A stretch of 42,696 nt of DNA from an uncultured bacterium (GTDB taxonomy: Bacteria > Gemmatimonadota > Gemmatimonadetes > Longimicrobiales > RSA9). The notes below the pieces were generated by a model. The model was not told where the DNA came from. It saw only the letters and a program-made list of their open reading frames with translations, and made no database searches. Made by a program: the position numbers and the translations under genes. Location of the stretch: contig CALKIP010000187.1 in the NCBI GenBank assembly GCA_937995995.1, forward strand, positions 1 through 42,696, written 5' to 3'. Position 1 is the first letter of the stretch. Each line of letters begins with the position of its first letter. This document shows positions 4,930 through 24,961 of this stretch, piece by piece.

Positions 4930-5892
4930 ATGCGACTATTCGCGAACGCCAACTACGACTTCATCAGCCGGCGGCGCCTCGGTTTTTCGATCAGTGGTGC
5001 CTTCCTGATCATCGCGCTCGTGGCCGCACTGATCGGGCAGTTCACCCAGGGGTCCTGGCTGAACTACGGCGTCGATTTCACCGGCGGAACGATCGTCCAG
5101 GTGGAGTTCGAGCAGCCCACGACGGTGGCCGATCTGCGTAGCATCGTCGAGCCGGTCGCGGCGGGCTCGGAGATCACGCGCTTCGGCGGGGAGAACGAGT
5201 TCCTGATCCGTGCGCCGGGCTTCTCGGAGGACGGCGTCAACGTCGGCGAACAGATCACGGCCGCCTTCGAGGCGGAGTACGGCGCGGACCAGTTCAACGT
5301 GGTGCGAATCGAGGCCGTCGGTCCGAAGATCGGTAGTGAGCTGCAGACCAAGGCCGCGCTCGCGATCCTGATCTCGTTCGCGATCACGCTGATCTACCTC
5401 GCCTTCCGATTCGAGTGGTATTACGGCGTGGCGGCCGTGGTGGCGGTCATGCACGACGTCGCGTTCACGCTCGGCCTGCTCACGCTTTTCCGGCTCGAAG
5501 TCTCGCTGACCACGGTGGCCGCGGTGCTGACGATCGTGGGGTACTCGCTGAACGACACCATCGTCATCTTCGACCGGGCACGCGAGAACCTGAAGAAGAT
5601 CGGGCGACGCGCCGAAATGGGCGAGGTGCTGAACCGCTCGATCAATGAGACGCTGCCGCGTACGGTGCTGACGAGCGGCACCACGCTGGCCACGCTCTTC
5701 GCGCTCTTCGTGCTGGGGGGTGAGACGATCCGCGAGTTCGCGCTGATCCTCCTCTTCGGCGTGCTGGTCGGGACGTACTCCTCGATCTTCATCGCCTCGC
5801 CCGCAATGCTCGAGATCGCGAAGCGCTCGAAGTCGAAGGCGGCAGCGAAGTCGAAGGGCCGTCCGGCGGCGCGTGCGGGTGCCGTAGTCTGA
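4930..5892 (+). CDS. secF: protein translocase subunit SecF
   Basis: 320 aa with YDFISRRR, LNYGVDFTGGT and GYSLNDTIVIFDRARE motifs. It follows secD directly. Confidence 0.92.
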   Translation: MRLFANANYDFISRRRLGFSISGAFLIIALVAALIGQFTQGSWLNYGVDFTGGTIVQVEFEQPTTVADLRSIVEPVAAGSEITRFGGENEFLIRAPGFSEDGVNVGEQITAAFEAEYGADQFNVVRIEAVGPKIGSELQTKAALAILISFAITLIYLAFRFEWYYGVAAVVAVMHDVAFTLGLLTLFRLEVSLTTVAAVLTIVGYSLNDTIVIFDRARENLKKIGRRAEMGEVLNRSINETLPRTVLTSGTTLATLFALFVLGGETIREFALILLFGVLVGTYSSIFIASPAMLEIAKRSKSKAAAKSKGRPAARAGAVV

Positions 5893-14976: not shown

Positions 14977-15297
14977 TCAAATCGTCGCTCCATCCTCCTC
15001 GGGATGGAGGACGGCAGATTCTTCATCACTCTCTTCGTCGACCGGTTCGACCTCCGGGCTCACCTGAATGAAGCGTGCCCAATCGCGCTCCAGAGGGATG
15101 GTCCGGCCCGACGCGGTTTCAAGGAGGAGGTGGGAGGGAGTGCCGGCACGGCATCGGACGACGTCGCCTTCACGCAGGCCGAGAGCGGTGCAGAACGAGC
15201 GAAGGGCGCCGAAGAGGATGCGGCGAATGAGGACGGCTTCGCCCGTTCGGGTGGCCGCGAGACTGCGGACGTGGTCCGGTGCGTGAGGGGTGGCCAT
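14977..15297 (-). CDS. FeoA-like (SH3-like) small protein with an acidic C-terminal tail
   Basis: LAATRTGEAVLIRRILFGALRSFCTALGLREGDVVRCRAGTPSHLLLETASGRTIPLERDWARFIQV fits the FeoA domain pattern (G-x-a-x-I ... L-x2-lGl-x-G-x-v ... A-x2-I-x-V). The tail is PEVEPVDEESDEES. The ATG at 15297 is preferred because the longer ORF (15369) would read through a canonical terminator hairpin. Confidence 0.5.
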   Translation of the reverse strand: MATPHAPDHVRSLAATRTGEAVLIRRILFGALRSFCTALGLREGDVVRCRAGTPSHLLLETASGRTIPLERDWARFIQVSPEVEPVDEESDEESAVLHPEEDGATI

Positions 15298-15322: not shown

Positions 15323-15350
15323 AATAAAAAAGGCGCCGGAATCGGCGCCT
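15323..15350 (-). terminator. rho-independent terminator ending the ECF-sigma operon
   Basis: The minus strand reads aggcgccg-attc-cggcgcct followed by tttttatt: an 8-bp GC-rich stem, a 4-nt loop and a T-run. Confidence 0.8.
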
Positions 15351-15446
15351 TCACATCCCTGACCCTCATGCAACAATTATGCCGGGAACGCCCCTAACTG
15401 GGGTAGAATCCGCCATCCCTGGAAGTACCTTGGGCGGTGGACCCTA

Positions 15447-16238
15447 TCAACCGATGCCGGGAGACGCGCTCGGCGGAAGCGGTAGCGGGCTCATCAATCC
15501 GTTGGGTCGTCCCTTGGGCGGACCTTTGCGCTTGCCCTTGCCTCCGGTGTCCTTGCGGCCCTTGCCCTGTCCGGGTGGAGTGAGTCCCGGGGGCCCATCG
15601 GTGGGGATCCCCTTGCCGCCGCGGACCGAGGAGGCGACGGCTGCTGCCGCTTCGGCCGGCAGAATGCCGCCACGTATCAGGCGTTCTACCGCGACGGGGA
15701 GGCTGCGGAGTTCCTCGGGGCGCGCGCCGCGGGCATTCCACGCACCGAGTACATCGAGCGCATGATCCACGGGAACGCCTCGATCGAGGAGGTCCGCGAG
15801 GGTGTGCACGGAAAGCGCGATCGACTGTCCTGGCGCCTTGCTCCGTAGGGAGCGTACGGCATCTTCCGGAACGCCACGGCGGAGCGCCTCGGCAACGGCC
15901 ACGATGTCCGTGGACGGGGCCGTGCCCTCGAGTGCCACCAGATCCCGCGCGCGGCCGAGTTGGCCGACGAGATCACGAACGACCAGGAGGACCTGATCGG
16001 CGGCGACGCCCTTCGCCGAGCCCTCGAGGGCCTTGTCGACGAGGGGCGAGATGGGCAGTCCGAGGGCCTGGGCGTCGGCGATCGCCCGTTCGAGATCGCG
16101 GGCGGTCGAAGCGGGCATCGTCGCCATCGCCTGTGTCAGGCGTGTGTCCTGCCATGCATCCGCGCTGCGCACCAGTGCCGGCGACCATCCGGCCGCCAGG
16201 ATCAGGAGTAAGGCAGCGGGAAAAGCGGATCGACTCAT
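15447..16238 (-). CDS. secreted hypothetical protein: alpha-helical G(V/L)P repeats plus a Gly/Lys/Pro-rich basic tail
   Basis: The ATG at 16238 has GGGAG 5 nt upstream and yields the signal peptide MSRSAFPAALLLILAAGWSPALVRSADA. A GTG at 16298 (GTGA overlap with the upstream gene) is an alternative start. The tail is GQGKGRKDTGGKGKRKGPPKGRPNG. Confidence 0.6.
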   Translation of the reverse strand: MSRSAFPAALLLILAAGWSPALVRSADAWQDTRLTQAMATMPASTARDLERAIADAQALGLPISPLVDKALEGSAKGVAADQVLLVVRDLVGQLGRARDLVALEGTAPSTDIVAVAEALRRGVPEDAVRSLRSKAPGQSIALSVHTLADLLDRGVPVDHALDVLGAWNARGARPEELRSLPVAVERLIRGGILPAEAAAAVASSVRGGKGIPTDGPPGLTPPGQGKGRKDTGGKGKRKGPPKGRPNGLMSPLPLPPSASPGIG

Positions 16239-16294
16239 AGAGACTCCCGAAAGGGTGTCATCCTTTCCAAAGGACGCGCGGGGCCTCACGATGG

Positions 16295-17449
16295 TCACTC
16301 CTGCTCGACCACGAGGCTCGCGTTTTGGCGGCCCCAGCCGTCATCGACGACGCCCGGGGCATTGTCCGGTACGTACCAGTGTTCGCTATCCAGTACGAAC
16401 ACGAAGTGGTGTAGTCCGGGTTCCAGGACGAGGTCCAGGACCCAGTGATCCCCCGAACGGTCCATCGGCCGAGGAGCCCAGTCGGTGAACGTTCCCGTAA
16501 GGGCGACGCGTTCCGCATCGCCGGCGGGCAGTCGGAAGTGGACCATGCGTCCGCCGTCGACGGCCTTGCCCACCTCCACGACCGGGACCGACGCCGTGAG
16601 GCTGCGGCGCATCATGCGCCAGCTCATACCGAGGCTGGCCGTCACACTCCCCGGACTGGCGTAGAGTGGGTCGGTCGCCGTCTTTTCGACCACGGCATAG
16701 GCCAGAACCCTGTCGGAAAGCTCCAGACTCACACTCCCACTCGCCCCGATCTCGCCCCCTACGGGCGTCGACCAGTGAGAGAGGCCGAGCCGGACGCCGG
16801 CCCCGCCGATCGTGAAGGTGGTTGCGGCGCCGAGCGCAGCATACGTGCCGTCCCGCTCGTCATTGCGGGAGTGGTACGCCTGGCCCGTCGCCTCCACCCA
16901 TACTGGCCCGACGTAGCGGCCGAGCGTCAGCGCCGCGCCCTCCACCGCGAGCGGGCCATCCGTCTCCACATTGAGCGGCAGCGGCACTGGGCGCGACGAG
17001 TCCGGCGGGAGATCGTTCATGAGCGACCAGTGACCGCGGGTCAACTTGCCCCGGAGCACGGCGGTCACGGGGCCGACTCTCCTCATGAGTTCCGGCTCCA
17101 GGACGAAGCCGTAGGCGCTGTAGGAGAGCGGGTGCCGGAAGTCGAGACCGAAGAGCTCGATGCGACTCGCGGCGAGGGAGGAGCCGATTCGGTGCGTGGT
17201 CTCCAAACCGAGGGTGCCGTTGAACCAGCTGCCCCCGCGCGATTGCGCACTTCGCCCGCCGTACGCTGCGGCATCGAAGGCGAACGGCCCCACATCGTCG
17301 ATTTGGAGCCGACCACCGAGCCAGCCGAGCACGGAGGCGTCCAGTGCCGTGGCGCCTGCCGGCGGACGGGCGTTCGCCACGGCCGCATCGAGCCACACGT
17401 CGGCGGACTGGGCATGGAGTTCGGCGCCCGAATTCGCTGCGCCGAACAT
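16295..17449 (-). CDS. putative outer-membrane beta-barrel protein with a C-terminal AMPK-beta/CBM48-like (glycogen-binding type) domain
   Basis: The N-terminal ~270 aa show about 14 amphipathic beta-strand-like segments. The C-terminal ~85 aa are VHFRLPAGDAERVALTGTFTDWAP...LEPGLHHFVFVLDSEHWYVPDNAPGVVDDGWGRQNASLVV. Coordinates use the conservative ATG; a CTG at 17497 probably extends the protein by a signal peptide (see findings). Confidence 0.65.
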   Translation of the reverse strand: MFGAANSGAELHAQSADVWLDAAVANARPPAGATALDASVLGWLGGRLQIDDVGPFAFDAAAYGGRSAQSRGGSWFNGTLGLETTHRIGSSLAASRIELFGLDFRHPLSYSAYGFVLEPELMRRVGPVTAVLRGKLTRGHWSLMNDLPPDSSRPVPLPLNVETDGPLAVEGAALTLGRYVGPVWVEATGQAYHSRNDERDGTYAALGAATTFTIGGAGVRLGLSHWSTPVGGEIGASGSVSLELSDRVLAYAVVEKTATDPLYASPGSVTASLGMSWRMMRRSLTASVPVVEVGKAVDGGRMVHFRLPAGDAERVALTGTFTDWAPRPMDRSGDHWVLDLVLEPGLHHFVFVLDSEHWYVPDNAPGVVDDGWGRQNASLVVEQE

Positions 17450-17493
17450 CAGGAGGAGTCCGCCGGCGACTGACGGAAGCAGCCTACGTCGCC

Positions 17494-18177
17494 TCAGGAC
17501 GTCCTCCCTTCGGGGAGCGCGACATTGATGATCGCATTCCTCATCCCGAAGCCGTCGTCCACGTAGCGCTCTGCCCTGGGATCGGTTTCCCAGCGCTCTC
17601 CGTCGATGAGGAACATGTACTTGTGTAGACCCGGCGGGAGCGGGAAGAGCCCGGTCCAGACGCCATCGCCGTCGGGGTCGCGCAGGTGGAACAGCTCGGG
17701 GTTCCAGTCGTTGAAGTCGCCGGCGACAGCGACTGTACGCGCCTCTTCGCTCGTGAAGACGAACTGGACGTAGACCGCCGGTGTGCCGGTGTCTGTGGTC
17801 GTCGTCGTGGGTGTGGTCGTCGTGGTCGTGGACACCGACGGCTCGGCGGGCGGCTCGAGGCCCGGGATGACCACCAGAAGGAATGCTGCGACGGCAGCGG
17901 CCACGGCCACAGCCGGGCGGACACGCACCGAGTGCGCCTCGACGAACCAGCGAAGAACGCGGCGGGGACGCCTGAACCCGGATGTCCAGGCCGCCGACCG
18001 GTCCGGGAGCGCCTCCATGACCCGGTCCTCTAGCCCGATGGGTGCTTGCTCCCGACGCAGCTCTGCAAAATCGTCCAGGACGGAATCCCAGACCTCGGCT
18101 TCCGAACGCAGCTCGTGCGGCAGCGCATCGCGTGGGATATCGCCGTCCAGATAGCGGTGTAGATCGGGGTGCATCAT
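17494..18177 (-). CDS. single-pass anti-sigma factor with an extracytoplasmic AMPK-beta/CBM48-like domain
   Basis: ATGA overlap with the ECF sigma gene. The N-terminal HPDLHRYLDGDIPRDALP resembles an anti-sigma N-domain. One TM helix (AVAVAAAVAAFLLVVIPG) is followed by a Thr-rich linker (TTTTTPTTTTTDTGTP). Then comes VQFVFTSEEARTVAVAGDFNDWNPE...PPGLHKYMFLIDGERWETDPRAERYVDDGFGMRNAIINV. Confidence 0.75.
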   Translation of the reverse strand: MMHPDLHRYLDGDIPRDALPHELRSEAEVWDSVLDDFAELRREQAPIGLEDRVMEALPDRSAAWTSGFRRPRRVLRWFVEAHSVRVRPAVAVAAAVAAFLLVVIPGLEPPAEPSVSTTTTTTPTTTTTDTGTPAVYVQFVFTSEEARTVAVAGDFNDWNPELFHLRDPDGDGVWTGLFPLPPGLHKYMFLIDGERWETDPRAERYVDDGFGMRNAIINVALPEGRTS

Positions 18178-18731
18178 AGGACCTCCTCCAGCTCGGCCCT
18201 GAGCGCCTCTCGGGCCCGTAGGACCCGCATCTTCAGTGCGGGTACGGATACGTCCAGCATCTCCGAAATCTCATCGTACGATCGTCCCTCCACGTGTTTG
18301 AGAAGGAACGCCTCCCGCTGGATCTCCGGCAACTTCCGGAGTGCCGCCTCGATGAGTCTCCGTAGCTCGTGCCGTTCGGTGTCGAGCGCCGGGTCTTCGT
18401 TCGAGCGGGCCGGCGGGATCGAATCGGAATCCAGACTCACGTCCCGGCGGCGGCGACTCTTGAGGTGGTCCTTGCAGCGGTTTGCCAGGATACGAAAGAG
18501 CCAGGCCCCGAAACGCTCCGGATCACGGCACCGGTCGATATGCGTGTACGCCTTGGCCCGCGCACTCTGGACCAGGTCGGCCGCGACATCGGCGGCACCG
18601 GTCATCCGGAGGGCGTGGCGGTAAAGGACATCCTGGTACCGTCGCACCAGGATCCGATACGCGTCTCGGTCTCCGGCCCGTACACGGGCCACAACGTTGC
18701 CATCCGTCGGTTCCGTGGGTTGCTGCTCCAT
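18174..18731 (-). CDS. ECF-type RNA polymerase sigma factor (sigma-70 family, regions 2 and 4)
   Basis: 185 aa. Region 2 is YRILVRRYQDVLYRHALRMTG...AADLVQSARAKAY...FGAWLFRILANRCKDHLK. Region 4 is LPEIQREAFLLKHVEGRSYDEISEMLDVSVPALKMRVLRAREAL. Confidence 0.9.
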   Translation of the reverse strand: MEQQPTEPTDGNVVARVRAGDRDAYRILVRRYQDVLYRHALRMTGAADVAADLVQSARAKAYTHIDRCRDPERFGAWLFRILANRCKDHLKSRRRRDVSLDSDSIPPARSNEDPALDTERHELRRLIEAALRKLPEIQREAFLLKHVEGRSYDEISEMLDVSVPALKMRVLRAREALRAELEEVL

Positions 18732-18800
18732 ACGGAACGCCTCACTTCCATTGACGCACAGGGGCGGAAAACGTCACCATCATCGGCACCCAGTGCGCTC

Positions 18801-18829: not shown

Positions 18830-18975
18830 CGCCACCGGCCGAGGTTACGCCCCAGCGAGAACGGGGCTGGCTTCCCCGCCGTTGGTGGGGGCAGTCGGCC
18901 CCGTTCTCTTTGGGGCGGGTCGACCACCTGCTAGTGCAGACCAGCCACGCATATTATCGCCCCGGAGGATAGGGT

Positions 18976-20109
18976 ATGTCGAGTCGAGGGTTGGAGGGCG
19001 TCGTCATCGCTGAATCGCGTCTCAGCAAAATCTATGGTGAACAGGGGCGCCTCATCTATAGCGGTTACGAAATCGAGGATCTCGCTGAAAATACAAGCTT
19101 TGAAGAAGTCTGCCACCTTCTGTGGTACGGCGAGCTTCCGAATCGCTCTCAGTTGGACGAGTTGAGCGGCCAACTCGCACGCCATCGGGCCGTGCACCCG
19201 GACCTTATTCAACTTCTTCGCATGCTTCCCGCCGATACGCACCCGATGGCGGCACTGCGCACGGCGGCATCCGCACTCGCCTCGTATGATGAGGAGTCCG
19301 AGGACAACTCGGACGATGCCAATCTGCGCAAGGCGATCCGCATCACCGCGAAGCTGGCCACGCTGACGACCGCCTTCGACCGACTGCGCAACGGCAAGGA
19401 GCCGGTCGAGCCGCGTGAAGACCTGTCTCACGCGGCCAACTTCCTGTACATGCTGCACGGCGAGGAGCCGGGCGAACTGGAGGCGCGGATCATCGACGCC
19501 GCGCTGATCCTGCACGCCGAGCACGGGATGAATGCGTCCACCTTCTCCGCACGGGTGACGGTGGCCACGCTCTCGGACATGCACTCCGGGCTCACGTCGG
19601 CAATCGGTACGCTCAAGGGACCGCTGCACGGCGGCGCGAACGAGCAGGTCATGCGCATGCTCCAGGACATCGGCACGGTGGAGAACGTCGATGACTGGAT
19701 CAAGGGCGCGCTCGACCGCAGGGAACGAATCATGGGCTTCGGGCACCGTGTCTACCGGGCGCTCGACCCCCGTGCGCCGATCCTCAAGCGTCTCGCCGAG
19801 GATCTCGTGGGGCGTGGCGGCAACACCCAATGGCTCGAGATCTCCGAGCGTATCCAGACCGTCATGGCCGAGGAGATGGAGGCGCGCGGGAAGAAGATCT
19901 ACCCGAACGTCGACTTCTTCAGTGCGTCGGTCTACTACACTCTAGGGATCCCGCTCGACCTGTTCACCAATGTCTTCGCCTGTGCGCGCGCGTCCGGGTG
20001 GACGGCACACATGATCGAGCAGTACAAGGACAACCGTCTGATTCGTCCGAAGGCGGAGTACATCGGGCCGGAGGGCCTCAAGGTCCGTCCGATCGACGAG
20101 CGGAGCTGA
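18976..20109 (+). CDS. gltA: citrate synthase (short, ~377-aa type)
   Basis: [48 protein letters not shown] and NVDFFSA motifs. GGAGG precedes the ATG. Confidence 0.92.
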
Positions 20110-21530: not shown

Positions 21531-23060
21531 ATGGCGAATCTCGACATCAAGGTCATCGAAGCGAAGGCGGCGGACGTCGCGGCATCGCTCTTCATCCTCC
21601 CCGCCGTGGAGGGCGAGGCGGAGGTGCGGGGCGCTGCGGCCGAAGTCGATGCGCGGACGGGCGGCCAGATCGCACGCGTGCTGGGCGGTGGCGACTTCCG
21701 CGGCAGGAAGGACGAGTCGCTGCTCCTCTACCCCCGTGAGGGCGAGCTCGCGGCCGAGCGCATCCTCCTCGTGGGAGTGGGAAAGCGTGACGAGCTGTCT
21801 GCAGAGCGTGTGCGGCGTGCACTCGGCACGGCCGTGCGCACGGCAGAACGCGTGGGCGCAGCCCGTCTCGCTCTCGCTATCGATTCCCTGGTGGGCGCGG
21901 GCGACGGGCTCGACGCCCGCGCCGTCGCACGGGCGGCCGCCGAGGGCGCGGAGCTCGCCGCGTGGGAGTTCGGCGAGTTCAAGACCCAGCGCTCCGACGG
22001 TGCGCCGCGGACGGAGATCGCGTCTCTCACCGTGGTCGCCGGGACAGCCGAAGAGGCGGAGGCGTGTGAGGCGGGGGCGCGCTACGGCGCCGTCGTCGCC
22101 CGGGGCGAGAACCTCGCACGCGAGCTCGCGTCCCGGCCCGGAAACGTTGCCACCCCGACGCACCTGGCGGAGGTGGCGGAGCGGATCGCCCGGGAGCGCG
22201 GCCTCGACATCACCGTGCTGGACCGGGAGGCAATGCAGCGCGAAGGGATGGGCGCGCTCCTCTCCGTGGCCGCGGGGAGTGAGCAAGAGCCGCGCTTCAT
22301 CGTGCTGGAGTACAAGGGTGCTGAGTCCGACGACGGCCCACTCGTCCTGGTCGGCAAGGGCGTGACCTTCGATACGGGCGGGATCTCGATCAAGCCGGCA
22401 GGCGGGATGGAGGACATGAAGTTCGACATGTCCGGCGCCGCCGGCGTGCTCGGCGCGATGCAGGCGATCGCCGAACTGGGGCTCAGGGAGCACGTGGTGG
22501 CCTTGATCCCGACGACCGAGAACATGCCTTCGGGGCGTGCGACGAAGCCGGGGGACATCGTGCGGAGCCTCTCGGGGAAGACGATCGAGGTCATCAACAC
22601 CGATGCCGAGGGGCGTCTGATCCTGGCCGACGCACTGGCGTACGCCCAACGCTACAAGCCGCGTGCGATCGTGGACGCCGCGACGTTGACCGGTGCATGC
22701 GTGATCGCACTCGGGCACCACGCCGTCGGGCTCATGGGCAACGACGAGGCGCTGATCGAAGAGGTACGGGCCGCAGGCGAACGGACGGGCGAGCGCTGCT
22801 GGCCACTCCCGCTATGGGACGAATACCGATCTCAGCTCGATAGCGAGTACGCCGACCTGAAGAACACGGGCGGCCGGCCGGCGGGCACGATCACCGCCGG
22901 CTGGTTCCTGCGCGAGTTCGTGGGCGATGTGCCGTGGGCGCATCTAGACATCGCGGGCACGGCGTACGGTGACAGCCCCCCTCCATACCTTCGCAAGGGG
23001 TCGACCGGCGTGCCGACCCGACTTTTCGTGGACTGGGTGAGGGCACGGGCCGAAGGGTGA
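21531..23060 (+). CDS. pepA: leucyl aminopeptidase (peptidase M17)
   Basis: VGKGVTFDTGGISIKP, MKFDMSGAA and NTDAEGRLILADAL, which are M17 signatures. Confidence 0.92.
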   Translation: MANLDIKVIEAKAADVAASLFILPAVEGEAEVRGAAAEVDARTGGQIARVLGGGDFRGRKDESLLLYPREGELAAERILLVGVGKRDELSAERVRRALGTAVRTAERVGAARLALAIDSLVGAGDGLDARAVARAAAEGAELAAWEFGEFKTQRSDGAPRTEIASLTVVAGTAEEAEACEAGARYGAVVARGENLARELASRPGNVATPTHLAEVAERIARERGLDITVLDREAMQREGMGALLSVAAGSEQEPRFIVLEYKGAESDDGPLVLVGKGVTFDTGGISIKPAGGMEDMKFDMSGAAGVLGAMQAIAELGLREHVVALIPTTENMPSGRATKPGDIVRSLSGKTIEVINTDAEGRLILADALAYAQRYKPRAIVDAATLTGACVIALGHHAVGLMGNDEALIEEVRAAGERTGERCWPLPLWDEYRSQLDSEYADLKNTGGRPAGTITAGWFLREFVGDVPWAHLDIAGTAYGDSPPPYLRKGSTGVPTRLFVDWVRARAEG

Positions 23061-24961
23061 AGTCGTTTCAATCCGGCGGCTTCCGATTCCGGTCGGAAGT
23101 CGCCCTGCTCGGGCTGGCGATGGCCCTGACCTTCGCCGGCGATGCGTGGGCCCAGGATCCGCAGCGCCCACCCGACCCGTCCGCAGATACGGTTCCGGCG
23201 GCGGACACGGCCCCGGTGGTTGCGGACTCGCTCGACGTCGAGATTCCCCGGGAGGCCGCTGCGGATACGCTCGAGCCGATCGAGGTGGTGCCCCGGATGT
23301 CCGGAGGCGCGGAGCCGTCATGGCGAGCCGGAATCTGGGAGTGGGACCGCGATGCGCTCCAGGCGAGCGGCGCGATCACGCTCACCGACCTGCTCGAGCG
23401 GATCCCGGGTGTGCAGGCGATACGTTACGGCCTATTTGGACAGCCGGAGGGCGTGAGCGCATGGGGGCTCGCCGGCGGGGGCACCGAGGTGATCCTCGAT
23501 GGCTTCGTACTCGATCCACTTGATGCCGGCACGCATGACCTTTCACGGATCGAGTTGGCCGAGCTCGAGCGCGTCCGCGTGGAGCGCACAGCCGGCCGAA
23601 TGCGTGTGGAGCTCGAGACGATCTCGCCGAGCGATCCCCGGCCGTTCTCGATGATCGAGGCGGGGATGGGCCAGCCGGACAAGTCCAAGATGATCCGGGG
23701 CATCTTCCAGACGCCGCGATTCCTGGGCGGGCCGTTCTCTGTGGCACTGGACCGGGTCGACTCCGAGGGATTCAACCGCGGCGAGCCGGCCAACACCTTT
23801 GCGGGCTGGCTCAAATGGGGCCGCGTGTCCGGGAGTACGGCGCTTCAGTTCGAGTATCGTCAGCACAACCTCGAGCGTGCCCTGCCAGACGGCACCCTCG
23901 GGGACGGCTCGAGACGTGACTGGGTGCTACGCGCGCGTGGAACGCCACTCAAAGGGCTGACCACGGAAGCGTATTTCGGCATGTCCAGCCTCGACGAGCA
24001 GTTGGGTGCGGACCGGACGGCCATGGCCGATGGAACGGCAGCCGGTGACGATGACGACTCGGATGCCGGGCCGGAGCGCATGGAGATCCAGAGCGCCCAG
24101 GCCGGGTTGCGCGCTGCCTACTGGAGCGAGCTGGGGTGGAGTCGGGCCTCGGTCCGGCTGCGAAATCAGCAGGGTCTGCCCGCGGTCGAGACGGAGTTGA
24201 GCGGCGGCCTCACAGCGCTTGGACCACTACATCTGAGCGGGACCGTCGGCTGGAGCGACTGGCGAGATGGCGCGAGCGCCGTCGCCTGGGGCGCCAAAGC
24301 CGAACTCGGCTCCCTCTTCGGCTTCCGACCGTTCGCCGAATTGAGCGGTGGACGGCGCGGCGTGCCGTTCCTCCAAGATTCGACCGGCGCAGCGGTCCTG
24401 ACCGATCGTGCTTCGCTCCGCATCGGTAGCGACTTCCAGTGGAAGGGTCTGCACCTCGGCGGCGCGTTCGTCGCCCAGTATGCGGATTCGGTGGCGGCGT
24501 TCGGCCTTCCGTTCGACCATACGGTAGGCCTCGTTCCGGGCGGCGACATGCGTGGCTGGGAGTTCACGGGCCGTATCCCTCTCCTCTGGGAGCCGCTTTC
24601 GCTCGAAGGCTCCTACGTCCGGTGGATCAGCCCTGCACCCTGGCTTTATACGCCGAAGAAGAGGCTGCGCGCGGCACTGGTCTACTCCCATAGCCCGTTG
24701 CCGAGTGGCAACCTCGAGATCCTCGCCAGGGTCGAGGGGCGGCACCAGGGCGCAATGACGGCGCCGACGCTCGAGGGGACTACCTCACTCGTGGAGCCCT
24801 ACACCGCGTTCGATGCGTACCTCCACCTTCGCATCCTGGATGTCCGTATCTTCGTCCATTGGGAAAACCTCCTGATGACGCCGGACATTCAATACCTGCC
24901 GGAGCGTGCGTTCCCGCGCCAGAGGGTGTTCTACGGCGTGAAATGGCACTTCTGGAACTAG
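23057..24961 (+). CDS. TonB-dependent-receptor-like outer-membrane protein (plug domain plus beta-barrel)
   Basis: The GTG start overlaps the pepA stop (GTGA). The signal peptide is ALLGLAMALTFAGDAWAQ. Plug-like region: ITLTDLLERIPGVQAIRYG...VILDGFVLDP...ELERVRVER. The rest is a long beta-rich C-terminal part ending in aromatic-rich YGVKWHFWN. Confidence 0.6.
   Translation: MKSFQSGGFRFRSEVALLGLAMALTFAGDAWAQDPQRPPDPSADTVPAADTAPVVADSLDVEIPREAAADTLEPIEVVPRMSGGAEPSWRAGIWEWDRDALQASGAITLTDLLERIPGVQAIRYGLFGQPEGVSAWGLAGGGTEVILDGFVLDPLDAGTHDLSRIELAELERVRVERTAGRMRVELETISPSDPRPFSMIEAGMGQPDKSKMIRGIFQTPRFLGGPFSVALDRVDSEGFNRGEPANTFAGWLKWGRVSGSTALQFEYRQHNLERALPDGTLGDGSRRDWVLRARGTPLKGLTTEAYFGMSSLDEQLGADRTAMADGTAAGDDDDSDAGPERMEIQSAQAGLRAAYWSELGWSRASVRLRNQQGLPAVETELSGGLTALGPLHLSGTVGWSDWRDGASAVAWGAKAELGSLFGFRPFAELSGGRRGVPFLQDSTGAAVLTDRASLRIGSDFQWKGLHLGGAFVAQYADSVAAFGLPFDHTVGLVPGGDMRGWEFTGRIPLLWEPLSLEGSYVRWISPAPWLYTPKKRLRAALVYSHSPLPSGNLEILARVEGRHQGAMTAPTLEGTTSLVEPYTAFDAYLHLRILDVRIFVHWENLLMTPDIQYLPERAFPRQRVFYGVKWHFWN

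Follow-up and report, generated by a model that had tools for sequence, protein, structure and literature searches.

The closest conceptual precedent for a carbohydrate-binding module (CBM) on an anti-sigma factor is the SigI/RsgI system of Clostridium thermocellum, in which an extracytoplasmic module of this kind on a membrane anti-sigma factor senses polysaccharide and proteolysis relays the signal (PMC10328401, PMC6852018). Here we describe a four-gene operon on contig CALKIP010000187.1 of an uncultured Gemmatimonadota bacterium (order Longimicrobiales), whose 42,696 nucleotides were analysed as a whole and are referred to below as the window. The operon encodes an extracytoplasmic function (ECF) sigma factor, its putative anti-sigma factor, a predicted outer-membrane barrel protein (p3) and a secreted helical-repeat protein (p4) [Table 1]. 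On balance, we lean towards reading it as an apparently autoregulated sigma/anti-sigma envelope-signalling module with a periplasmic CBM as its sensor, p4 as a co-regulator and a second CBM held at the outer membrane. As in RsgI, the carbohydrate-binding module lies at the extracytoplasmic end of a membrane anti-sigma factor. The two systems differ, however, in their sigma factors (here of the RpoE/SigW-type ECF group rather than SigI), in the module itself (CBM48/AMPK1_CBM as opposed to CBM3, CBM42, PA14 or GH domains), in its surroundings (a diderm periplasm rather than the outside of a monoderm wall), in that a Pfam scan found no RsgI N-terminal or SEAL-type domain here, and in the additional partners of the present system, namely a tethered paralogous module and p4. 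A literature search retrieved no paper describing an anti-sigma factor with an AMPK1_CBM, CBM_48 or glycogen-binding domain, and the architecture is not mentioned in the main text of the ECF reclassification paper or in the text of the ASDI paper. The novelty originally claimed for the locus thus does not extend to the presence of a CBM on an anti-sigma factor, for which RsgI/SigI is the precedent; it stands for the type of module, the diderm setting and the partners.

The four genes are co-oriented on the minus strand and were found as open reading frames (ORFs) where the original prediction had placed them, within a unit spanning 15329-18777. The product of the first gene was correctly recognized as an ECF sigma factor: it contains only the sigma2 and sigma4 regions (Pfam Sigma70_r2, 2.7e-16; Sigma70_r4_2, 5.2e-17) and scores 104.7 bits against the NCBIfam ECF family model TIGR02937 (cutoff 42.9). 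None of the NCBIfam equivalogs reaches its cutoff, the top one being SigW (112 bits versus 209), and the nearest solved structures are those of Escherichia coli sigmaE (1or7, 2.4e-24) and SigW. The likeness to the E. coli rpoE-rseA-rseB-rseC operon extends to the layout, with an apparently autoregulated sigma factor, a single-pass anti-sigma factor and a putative periplasmic co-regulator, and to a tie with outer-membrane status. In contrast to the E. coli system, no RseA, RseB/MucB or RseC domain was found here with Pfam or NCBIfam, p4 is all-helical whereas RseB is beta-rich, the sensor is of the CBM type, and an outer-membrane protein is encoded within the operon itself.

The sigma and anti-sigma genes overlap in an ATGA at 18177-18174, as had been noted, which combines the stop codon of the former with the start codon of the latter. 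When one genome per species was scanned, relatives turned up in 208 stretches, of which the best 80 are those counted in what follows; the two genes adjoin each other in 80/80 of these loci. A single hydrophobic stretch bears out the single-pass topology claimed for the anti-sigma factor, which is further supported by an Arg-rich, positively charged segment just before the transmembrane helix, and the Thr-rich linker that had been described is present in the translation (STTTTTTPTTTTTDTGTP; roughly 27 residues). The cytoplasmic domain is short and helical and opens with the pattern HxxLxRYLDGEL. A profile of the N-terminal 80 residues retrieved the RsiW anti-sigma domain 5wuq_C as its only plausible PDB match (E 0.0023), while the NCBIfam anti-sigma model NF052375 yields 22.5 bits against a cutoff of 100, and the Cys motif (ZAS H-x3-C-x2-C) is absent from the N-terminal domain in the family alignment. 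Taken with the ATGA coupling and the invariant adjacency to the sigma gene, the RsiW match suggests that this protein is a class I-like, zinc-free anti-sigma factor. Bacillus subtilis SigW/RsiW accordingly shares with the present pair a SigW-like sigma factor and a weakly matching N-terminal domain; RsiW, however, has a zinc-binding motif and another extracytoplasmic domain, whereas here there is neither a Cys motif nor a zf-HC2 match. A word-indexed search returned 587 homologues of the anti-sigma factor, those with names coming from metagenome-assembled genomes (MAGs) of Longimicrobiales or Gemmatimonadetes. Within this family, conservation is far stronger in the periplasmic module than in the cytoplasmic domain or linker, which points to a conserved ligand.

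The CBM48/AMPK-beta-type modules attributed to the anti-sigma factor and to the C terminus of p3 both pass the Pfam AMPK1_CBM cutoff of 26.8 bits. That of the anti-sigma factor scores 39.5 bits (6.6e-10, residues 141-220), is also matched by CBM_48 (3.5e-7, 30.9 bits versus a cutoff of 22.4) and resembles the AMPK beta2 CBM structure 2f15 (E 4.9e-6); that of p3 scores 36.3 bits (6.7e-9) and resembles the AMPK beta1 CBM 1z0n (E 2.8e-6). With 39% identity (BLASTP 2e-15), the two modules are closer to one another than either is to AMPK, in agreement with the paralogy proposed for them. In rat AMPK beta1, sugar binding reportedly depends critically on W100, K126, W133 and N150 (PMC4032982). In the anti-sigma factor these correspond to W158, M188, W196 and N214, and in p3 (400-residue numbering) to W340, V366, W374 and N392, such that both modules keep the counterparts of W100, W133 and N150 but carry Met or Val in place of K126, and are borne by periplasmic signalling proteins rather than by a kinase or a GH13 enzyme. 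The two Trp residues are invariant across all forms of the module found, and the Lys is never kept. Since a plant relative in which only the two Trp are conserved still binds starch in vitro (PMC4032982), glycan binding by the modules of the present system is plausible, if not established.

The body of p3 had been described as a 12-14-strand outer-membrane barrel. AlphaFold2 models it with 14 beta strands (residues 29-299) followed, after a linker of 7 residues, by a beta-sandwich (residues 307-397), at a predicted local distance difference test score (pLDDT) of 79.4. Pfam recognizes nothing in the first 300 residues and no outer-membrane-protein family. A Foldseek search of the model against the PDB returned 312 matches at E <= 0.001, the 50 listed being nearly all outer-membrane barrels or porin-derived; the top matches are the 14-strand proteins TodX, FadL, CymD, OmpG and CymA (E about 1e-7), with a target-normalised template modelling (TM) score of up to 0.68 for OmpG (2f1c). 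The protein thus combines a signal peptide, an even number of strands and a fold match to solved outer-membrane proteins. The even strand count of the model, together with tight two-residue turns that alternate with longer variable loops, suggests that the C-terminal module faces the periplasm.

An N-terminal outer-membrane barrel holding a periplasmic domain is the architecture of OmpA, and outer- and inner-membrane-tethered components that face each other in the periplasm are found in RcsF/IgaA. Neither shares sequence or fold kinship with the present proteins, the barrel has 14 strands rather than 8, and the output is an ECF sigma factor and not a phosphorelay. In FecI/FecR/FecA cell-surface signalling, too, the genes for an ECF sigma factor, a regulator of the inner membrane and a barrel of the outer membrane lie together; yet the original prediction was right to set the operon apart from it, as Pfam finds no FecR, Plug or STN match, and hence no FecR domain or TonB-dependent transducer, in the four proteins, and the barrel is one of 14 strands devoid of an N-terminal signalling extension.

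The likeness of the p3 model to 14-strand substrate channels, among them OmpG and the cyclodextrin channel CymA, bears on another reading, namely that the operon serves alpha-glucan sensing and uptake. In this scenario, p3 would be an OmpG/CymA-type glucan or maltodextrin channel whose module captures the incoming sugar, the anti-sigma module would bind the same glucan, and the sigma factor would drive utilisation genes. Among 14-strand barrels, however, such likeness is generic (TM 0.4-0.68). The modules themselves speak in part for this proposal, as both pass the AMPK1_CBM cutoff and keep the two stacking Trp and the Asn, the plant relative with only two Trp binds starch in vitro (PMC4032982), and RsgI provides a precedent for CBM-bearing, polysaccharide-sensing anti-sigma factors; the equivalent of K126 is nonetheless lost. 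The genomic context offers it little: no GH13 or other glucan-utilisation gene is conserved adjoining the operon, one clade having citrate synthase, isocitrate dehydrogenase and M17 peptidase genes as neighbours and another ppk, ppx, phoU and pst, and recurrence of the promoter motif described below was found only for the operon itself, for p4 and for a DUF4382 lipoprotein gene. The swap of the barrel for a lipid anchor in one variant and its absence from about 40% of loci speak against a role as a channel, and we regard glucan sensing and uptake as an unlikely function for this system.

The overlap of p3 with the anti-sigma stop codon, which had been pointed out, comes about through a CTG: the stop codon TGA (17496-17494) overlaps an in-frame CTG at 17497-17495, forming a CTGA. 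Reading from the CTG at 17497 yields RRRR followed by a hydrophobic core, and no ATG, GTG or TTG lies upstream in frame. The ATG at 17449 was rejected as the start of p3; it would delete the signal peptide, and relatives have CTGA or ATGA upstream of it. In 21 of 24 non-redundant related loci compared, the anti-sigma stop is part of a CTGA whose CTG is in frame with p3; 14 of these 21 have no canonical start before the signal-peptide core, and two other loci carry ATGA at exactly the position of the p3 CTG. The CTGA was seen in the window (17494-17497) and, among others, in L001, L003, L010, L011, L015, L017-L019, L023, L028, L031, L093 and L094. The conserved CTGA/ATGA overlap, and a signal peptide that appears only when p3 is read from the CTG, make it most likely that p3 starts at a conserved non-canonical CTG and is translationally coupled to the anti-sigma factor.

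The product of the last gene, p4, has a Sec-type signal peptide without a lipobox, a helical body (residues ~27-206) and a disordered C-terminal tail rich in Gly, Pro, Ala and Arg/Lys (~207-263). Its AlphaFold2 model (pLDDT 85.8) comprises 12 helices, with the tail at low confidence. Foldseek found no natural fold match for it in the PDB, only designed helical repeats (E >= 0.06), and searches of Pfam and NCBIfam found no Pfam family and no meaningful NCBIfam match. The family is nonetheless a large one, with 2982 clusters (50% identity) at E <= 1e-3 and 1602 at <= 1e-10; all the names seen for it in the public collection are "hypothetical protein". A PPxPPG in the tail was considered as a conserved docking peptide and dropped, being present in 44/182 family members only; what is conserved in the tail is its composition and not a sequence motif. 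The start codon of p4 (ATG, 16238) is preceded by a GGGAG ribosome-binding site, and the gene ends at 15447.

The best 80 loci all belong to Gemmatimonadota or unclassified MAGs, including Longimicrobiales, Palauibacter and Kutchimonas, and their six-frame ORFs were searched with profiles of the four operon proteins. All four proteins were found in 43/80 loci, and the sigma factor, the anti-sigma factor and p4 without p3 in 30/80; in the other 7/80 the contig is too short to tell. The sigma factor, the anti-sigma factor and p4 thus occur together in 73/73 loci with enough sequence, whereas p3 is present in 43 of these 73 (~60%), to which are added five contigs ending inside or just after p3. 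The gene set is therefore no chance arrangement, being kept in dozens of other genomes, where the module is single-copy, syntenic and strongly conserved in Gemmatimonadota. The original description has withstood each of the three checks that it proposed for its own refutation, on detection of the modules by profile, on the barrel fold and on joint conservation of the genes. These counts modify the roles first assigned to the partners. The barrel-CBM gene recurs, in 43 loci, but is not an invariant partner, being absent from 30/80; the helical-repeat protein, treated earlier as peripheral, is present in every sufficiently long locus and carries its own copy of the promoter motif. Found in all 73 loci that reach far enough, p4 is the universal third component of the system. 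The possibility that a divergent p3 lies hidden after p4 in the p3-free loci was rejected, as its profile found only the anti-sigma module within ±6 kb. Many of these loci come from related Palauibacter genomes and are not independent, implying fewer independent losses.

Variant architectures were revealed by a metagenome scan seeded with p3. In 20 contigs and additional partial ones, the sigma factor, anti-sigma factor and p4 are followed by a protein of roughly 330-440 residues with a C-terminal module; proteins of this type are full-length divergent homologues of p3 (hhalign probability 99.7%, E 1.3e-26, 348 columns). Contigs with a p4 closest to that of a Gemmatimonadaceae MAG show the order ppk, sigma, anti-sigma (159-174 residues, with the module), p4 and a 363-366-residue protein, beside ppx, phoU and pst genes. 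In three loci of the Gemmatimonadaceae type (L090-L092), the system lies between ppk and ppx/phoU/pst genes, and a 4-nt overlap between the sigma gene and the end of ppk suggests that the system is co-transcribed there with polyphosphate metabolism genes. In another variant (four complete and three partial contigs; L111, L121, L125, L133, L139, L160 and L165), a small module-only protein of 117-125 residues, with a signal peptide and a lipobox Cys followed by Ala at position +2, is encoded between the anti-sigma factor and p4. One of these lipoproteins falls into the same 90% cluster as MEW6246508.1, a protein whose annotation comes from a Nitrospirota MAG, indicating that the system is not confined to Gemmatimonadota. 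By analogy with the +2 residue rule established in E. coli, the small lipoprotein probably goes to the outer membrane. The second tethered CBM accordingly occurs in three forms, as a barrel protein encoded before p4, as a divergent barrel homologue encoded after p4 and as a small lipoprotein, and the recurring design is that of an inner-membrane-tethered module, usually a second module tethered by a barrel or a lipid anchor, and p4.

That a second, paralogous module tethered to a membrane recurs in different lineages, in three forms that differ genetically and structurally, is relevant to the contact between the two modules proposed originally. In such a relay, the modules of p3 and the anti-sigma factor would bind one another directly across the periplasm and the loss or gain of this contact, for instance upon failed outer-membrane assembly, would free the sigma factor in a manner reminiscent of RcsF/IgaA. 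The CTGA coupling of p3 to the anti-sigma factor would also fit a stoichiometric complex. The second module does recur, but it is optional: about 40% of Gemmatimonadota loci have none within ±6 kb, yet their anti-sigma module is highly conserved. Moreover, the shortness of the tethers (7 residues in p3, ~27 in the anti-sigma factor) would make contact geometrically doubtful without an adaptor, and direct contact strikes us as distinctly improbable. What the three-form recurrence favours is cooperation of the two modules, rather than direct contact or glucan sensing as such. A bolder reading, which we consider rather unlikely, is that of a previously unrecognised trans-envelope sensor of Gemmatimonadota, with a Nitrospirota-type variant, in which the inner- and outer-membrane-tethered modules would be bridged by p4 or by a shared envelope glycan, the sigma factor reporting on the physical or chemical integrity of the intermembrane space.

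Evidence that the operon may be controlled by its own sigma factor comes from a shared bipartite motif with the consensus GTGAC(C/G)-N16/17-(T)CGTCT, of which one copy lies 22 nt upstream of the sigma ATG (predicted promoter P1) and another in front of p4 (predicted promoter P2) [Table 1]. A search for GTGAC-N15-18-CGTC in the 200 nt that precede the sigma gene found the motif in 61 of the 80 loci, against ~1.6 expected from a background of 0.10 per kb per strand. It was found before p4 in 28/45 loci with both p3 and p4, and in 26 of those 28 its TGA is exactly the p3 stop codon, which in the window is the TGA at 16297-16295; in the remaining p3- and p4-containing loci the two genes are tightly coupled and motif-free. 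Control loci from a distant clade have the motif upstream of the sigma gene in 2/39 cases, denoting a clade-specific motif. P1 and P2 are therefore predicted to be sigma-dependent promoters. A sigma-70-like promoter match (TCGACA-18-GATAAT, 10/12) is located upstream of P1 at 18953-18982 on the minus strand, where it overlaps the very beginning of the divergently oriented citrate synthase gene (start 18976), and could be a source of basal operon transcription.

Prediction of a wider regulon from matches to the motif in the window was rejected, their number being that expected by chance. Across loci, the recurrent motif-bearing genes are limited to the operon itself, p4 and the DUF4382 lipoprotein gene, other recurrent matches having been discarded as spurious Arg-rich ORFs or as coming from closely related genomes. 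The DUF4382 lipoprotein gene (323-395 residues, with a lipobox and a CPSC motif) carries the motif in seven loci (L025, L029, L035, L043, L058, L060 and L075), where it lies directly upstream of the sigma gene, at ~1.3-2 kb and on the same strand; there is none in the window. This gene, too, may belong to the regulon. In 10 closely related genomes (L036-L051 and other Palauibacter loci), an opposite-strand copy of the motif upstream of the sigma gene (around position 4950) points away from it, with a second ECF-like sigma ORF some 4.5 kb off on that strand; this copy could mark a divergent target or be a chance match kept by relatedness.

The motif also invites the simpler view that p3 and p4 are mere regulon members, envelope proteins made upon sigma activation, and that the anti-sigma module senses something unrelated. 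Target genes are often part of ECF operons, p4 is preceded by a sigma-type motif of its own, and the DUF4382 lipoprotein gene beside the operon bears one in seven loci. Left unexplained by this view, which we consider very unlikely, are the presence of a paralogue of the sensor module on a co-transcribed protein, the three independent architectures in which it occurs, and the linkage of p4 to the anti-sigma factor in every locus and in at least two phyla.

We thus return to the envelope-signalling module that we favour, in which the anti-sigma factor would, at rest, keep the sigma factor at the membrane. Its periplasmic module would act as the sensor through a change in occupancy of the conserved two-Trp platform, which would be filled either by a glycan of the periplasm or envelope or by p4 as a partner protein. 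Such a change would make the anti-sigma factor accessible to regulated proteolysis of the kind that acts on RsiW and RseA, and the freed sigma factor would transcribe its own operon from P1 and boost p4 from P2. p4 may thus be an inducible periplasmic co-regulator or feedback component, akin in role to RseB, while p3, coupled to the anti-sigma factor at a weak start codon, would be synthesized alongside it; the coupled start of p3 and the independently inducible p4 suggest that the former is a stoichiometric sensor partner and the latter a feedback or co-regulatory component. The second module, tethered to the outer membrane, may bind the same ligand and report or titrate it from the outer-membrane side. 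The barrel would then be mainly an outer-membrane anchor for this module and not a channel, as suggested by its replacement with a small CBM lipoprotein in the Nitrospirota-type variant and by the lack of a second module in some loci.

We note that several observations weigh against this interpretation. p3 is missing within ±6 kb in 30/80 loci, or ~40% of the 73 whose sequence continues beyond the anti-sigma gene, and is consequently not essential for signalling. Its AlphaFold2 model was built on an alignment of 11 sequences, with a pLDDT of 79 and without inter-domain confidence values. The Pfam scan of the anti-sigma factor found no anti-sigma domain, including zf-HC2 and RskA, and its match to RsiW is weak. 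The equivalent of K126 is lost to Met in the anti-sigma factor and to Val in p3, and that of N150 is lost in the divergent barrel homologue. Finally, the promoter motif is a sequence pattern only, whose weight rests on its positional conservation among related genomes, and overall it is not enriched in the window (4 found versus 4.47 expected).

Table 1. Features of the operon in the window; residue numbers refer to the encoded protein, with p3 read from its CTG.
Feature	Nucleotides	Strand	Residues	Basis
ECF (group 4) sigma-70 family sigma factor, RpoE/SigW-like, 185 aa	18174..18731	-		Pfam, NCBIfam, nearest structures
Single-pass anti-sigma factor (putative), 227 aa	17494..18177	-		ATGA overlap, adjacency to sigma gene, profiles
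Anti-sigma cytoplasmic domain		-	~1-80	RsiW profile match
Anti-sigma transmembrane helix	17854-17922	-	~86-108	One hydrophobic stretch
Anti-sigma periplasmic CBM48/AMPK1_CBM module	17518-17769	-	137-220	Pfam, AMPK structure match
p3, 400 aa from probable CTG start	16295..17497	-		AlphaFold2, Foldseek, Pfam, conserved CTGA
p3 signal peptide		-	~1-25	Reading from CTG
p3 predicted 14-strand outer-membrane beta-barrel	16601-17413	-	29-299	AlphaFold2
p3 CBM48-like module, probably periplasmic	16307-16579	-	307-397	Beta-sandwich model, Pfam
p4, secreted all-helical repeat protein, 263 aa	15447..16238	-		AlphaFold2, signal peptide
P1, predicted sigma-dependent (autoregulatory) promoter, GTGACG-N16-CGTC	18753..18777	-		22 nt upstream of sigma ATG
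P2, predicted internal sigma-dependent promoter for p4, GTGACC-N17-CGTC	16273..16298	-		TGA in GTGAC is the p3 stop codon
Intrinsic-terminator-like hairpin closing the unit	15329..15352	-		Stem of 10 pairs (7 G-C), loop of 4, then TTTTATT

Where a terminator had been predicted, the operon is closed by a terminator-like hairpin followed by a T-run at 15352-15329, and no Rfam family or tRNA was found in the whole window. The operon is flanked by housekeeping genes. A small FeoA-like gene, rpsU, ubiA and coaX lie on one side, and the genes on the other side, which are divergent, encode citrate synthase, isocitrate dehydrogenase, M17 aminopeptidase and a TonB-dependent receptor. The FeoA-domain protein (~106 residues, 14977-15297, minus strand; Pfam FeoA 3.3e-5) is encoded just past the terminator, and a gene of ~97-100 codons occupies its position in L001, L003, L004 and L006, with no feoB seen adjoining. 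The TonB-dependent receptor (Plug domain; 22973-24961, plus strand) is syntenic some 4 kb from the operon in several relatives, including the ends of L001 and L004; no N-terminal STN signalling domain was detected in it, and it is thus unlike FecA-type transducers. With regard to base composition, third-position GC is 0.76 in the sigma gene and 0.75 in p4, somewhat below the values of 0.81 for the anti-sigma gene, 0.82 for p3 and 0.81 for citrate synthase, and also below the 0.79-0.89 of the other long ORFs of the window that pass the coding filter.

ECF sigma/anti-sigma pairs provide bacteria with a major route of envelope sensing, and most ECF groups are without a known signal. In the three-part design of the system described here, the sigma/anti-sigma pair has p4 as its invariant partner and the second module is frequent but optional; the putative sensor is a type of domain otherwise known from AMPK and from starch and glycogen enzymes. 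Two regulatory features, the predicted promoter motif located at the p3 stop codon and the conserved CTG start, are concrete and open to testing. Were the sensor with bridged modules to prove true, it would represent a functional analogue of Rcs or sigmaE signalling built from glycogen-binding-type domains. Should a glycan prove to be the ligand of the modules, the operon would encode a periplasmic glycan-sensing ECF system of diderms; should they instead bind p4 or each other, a carbohydrate-binding fold would have been re-used for protein docking in a trans-envelope relay. Either outcome would provide a function for two uncharacterised protein families, the p3 barrel and p4.

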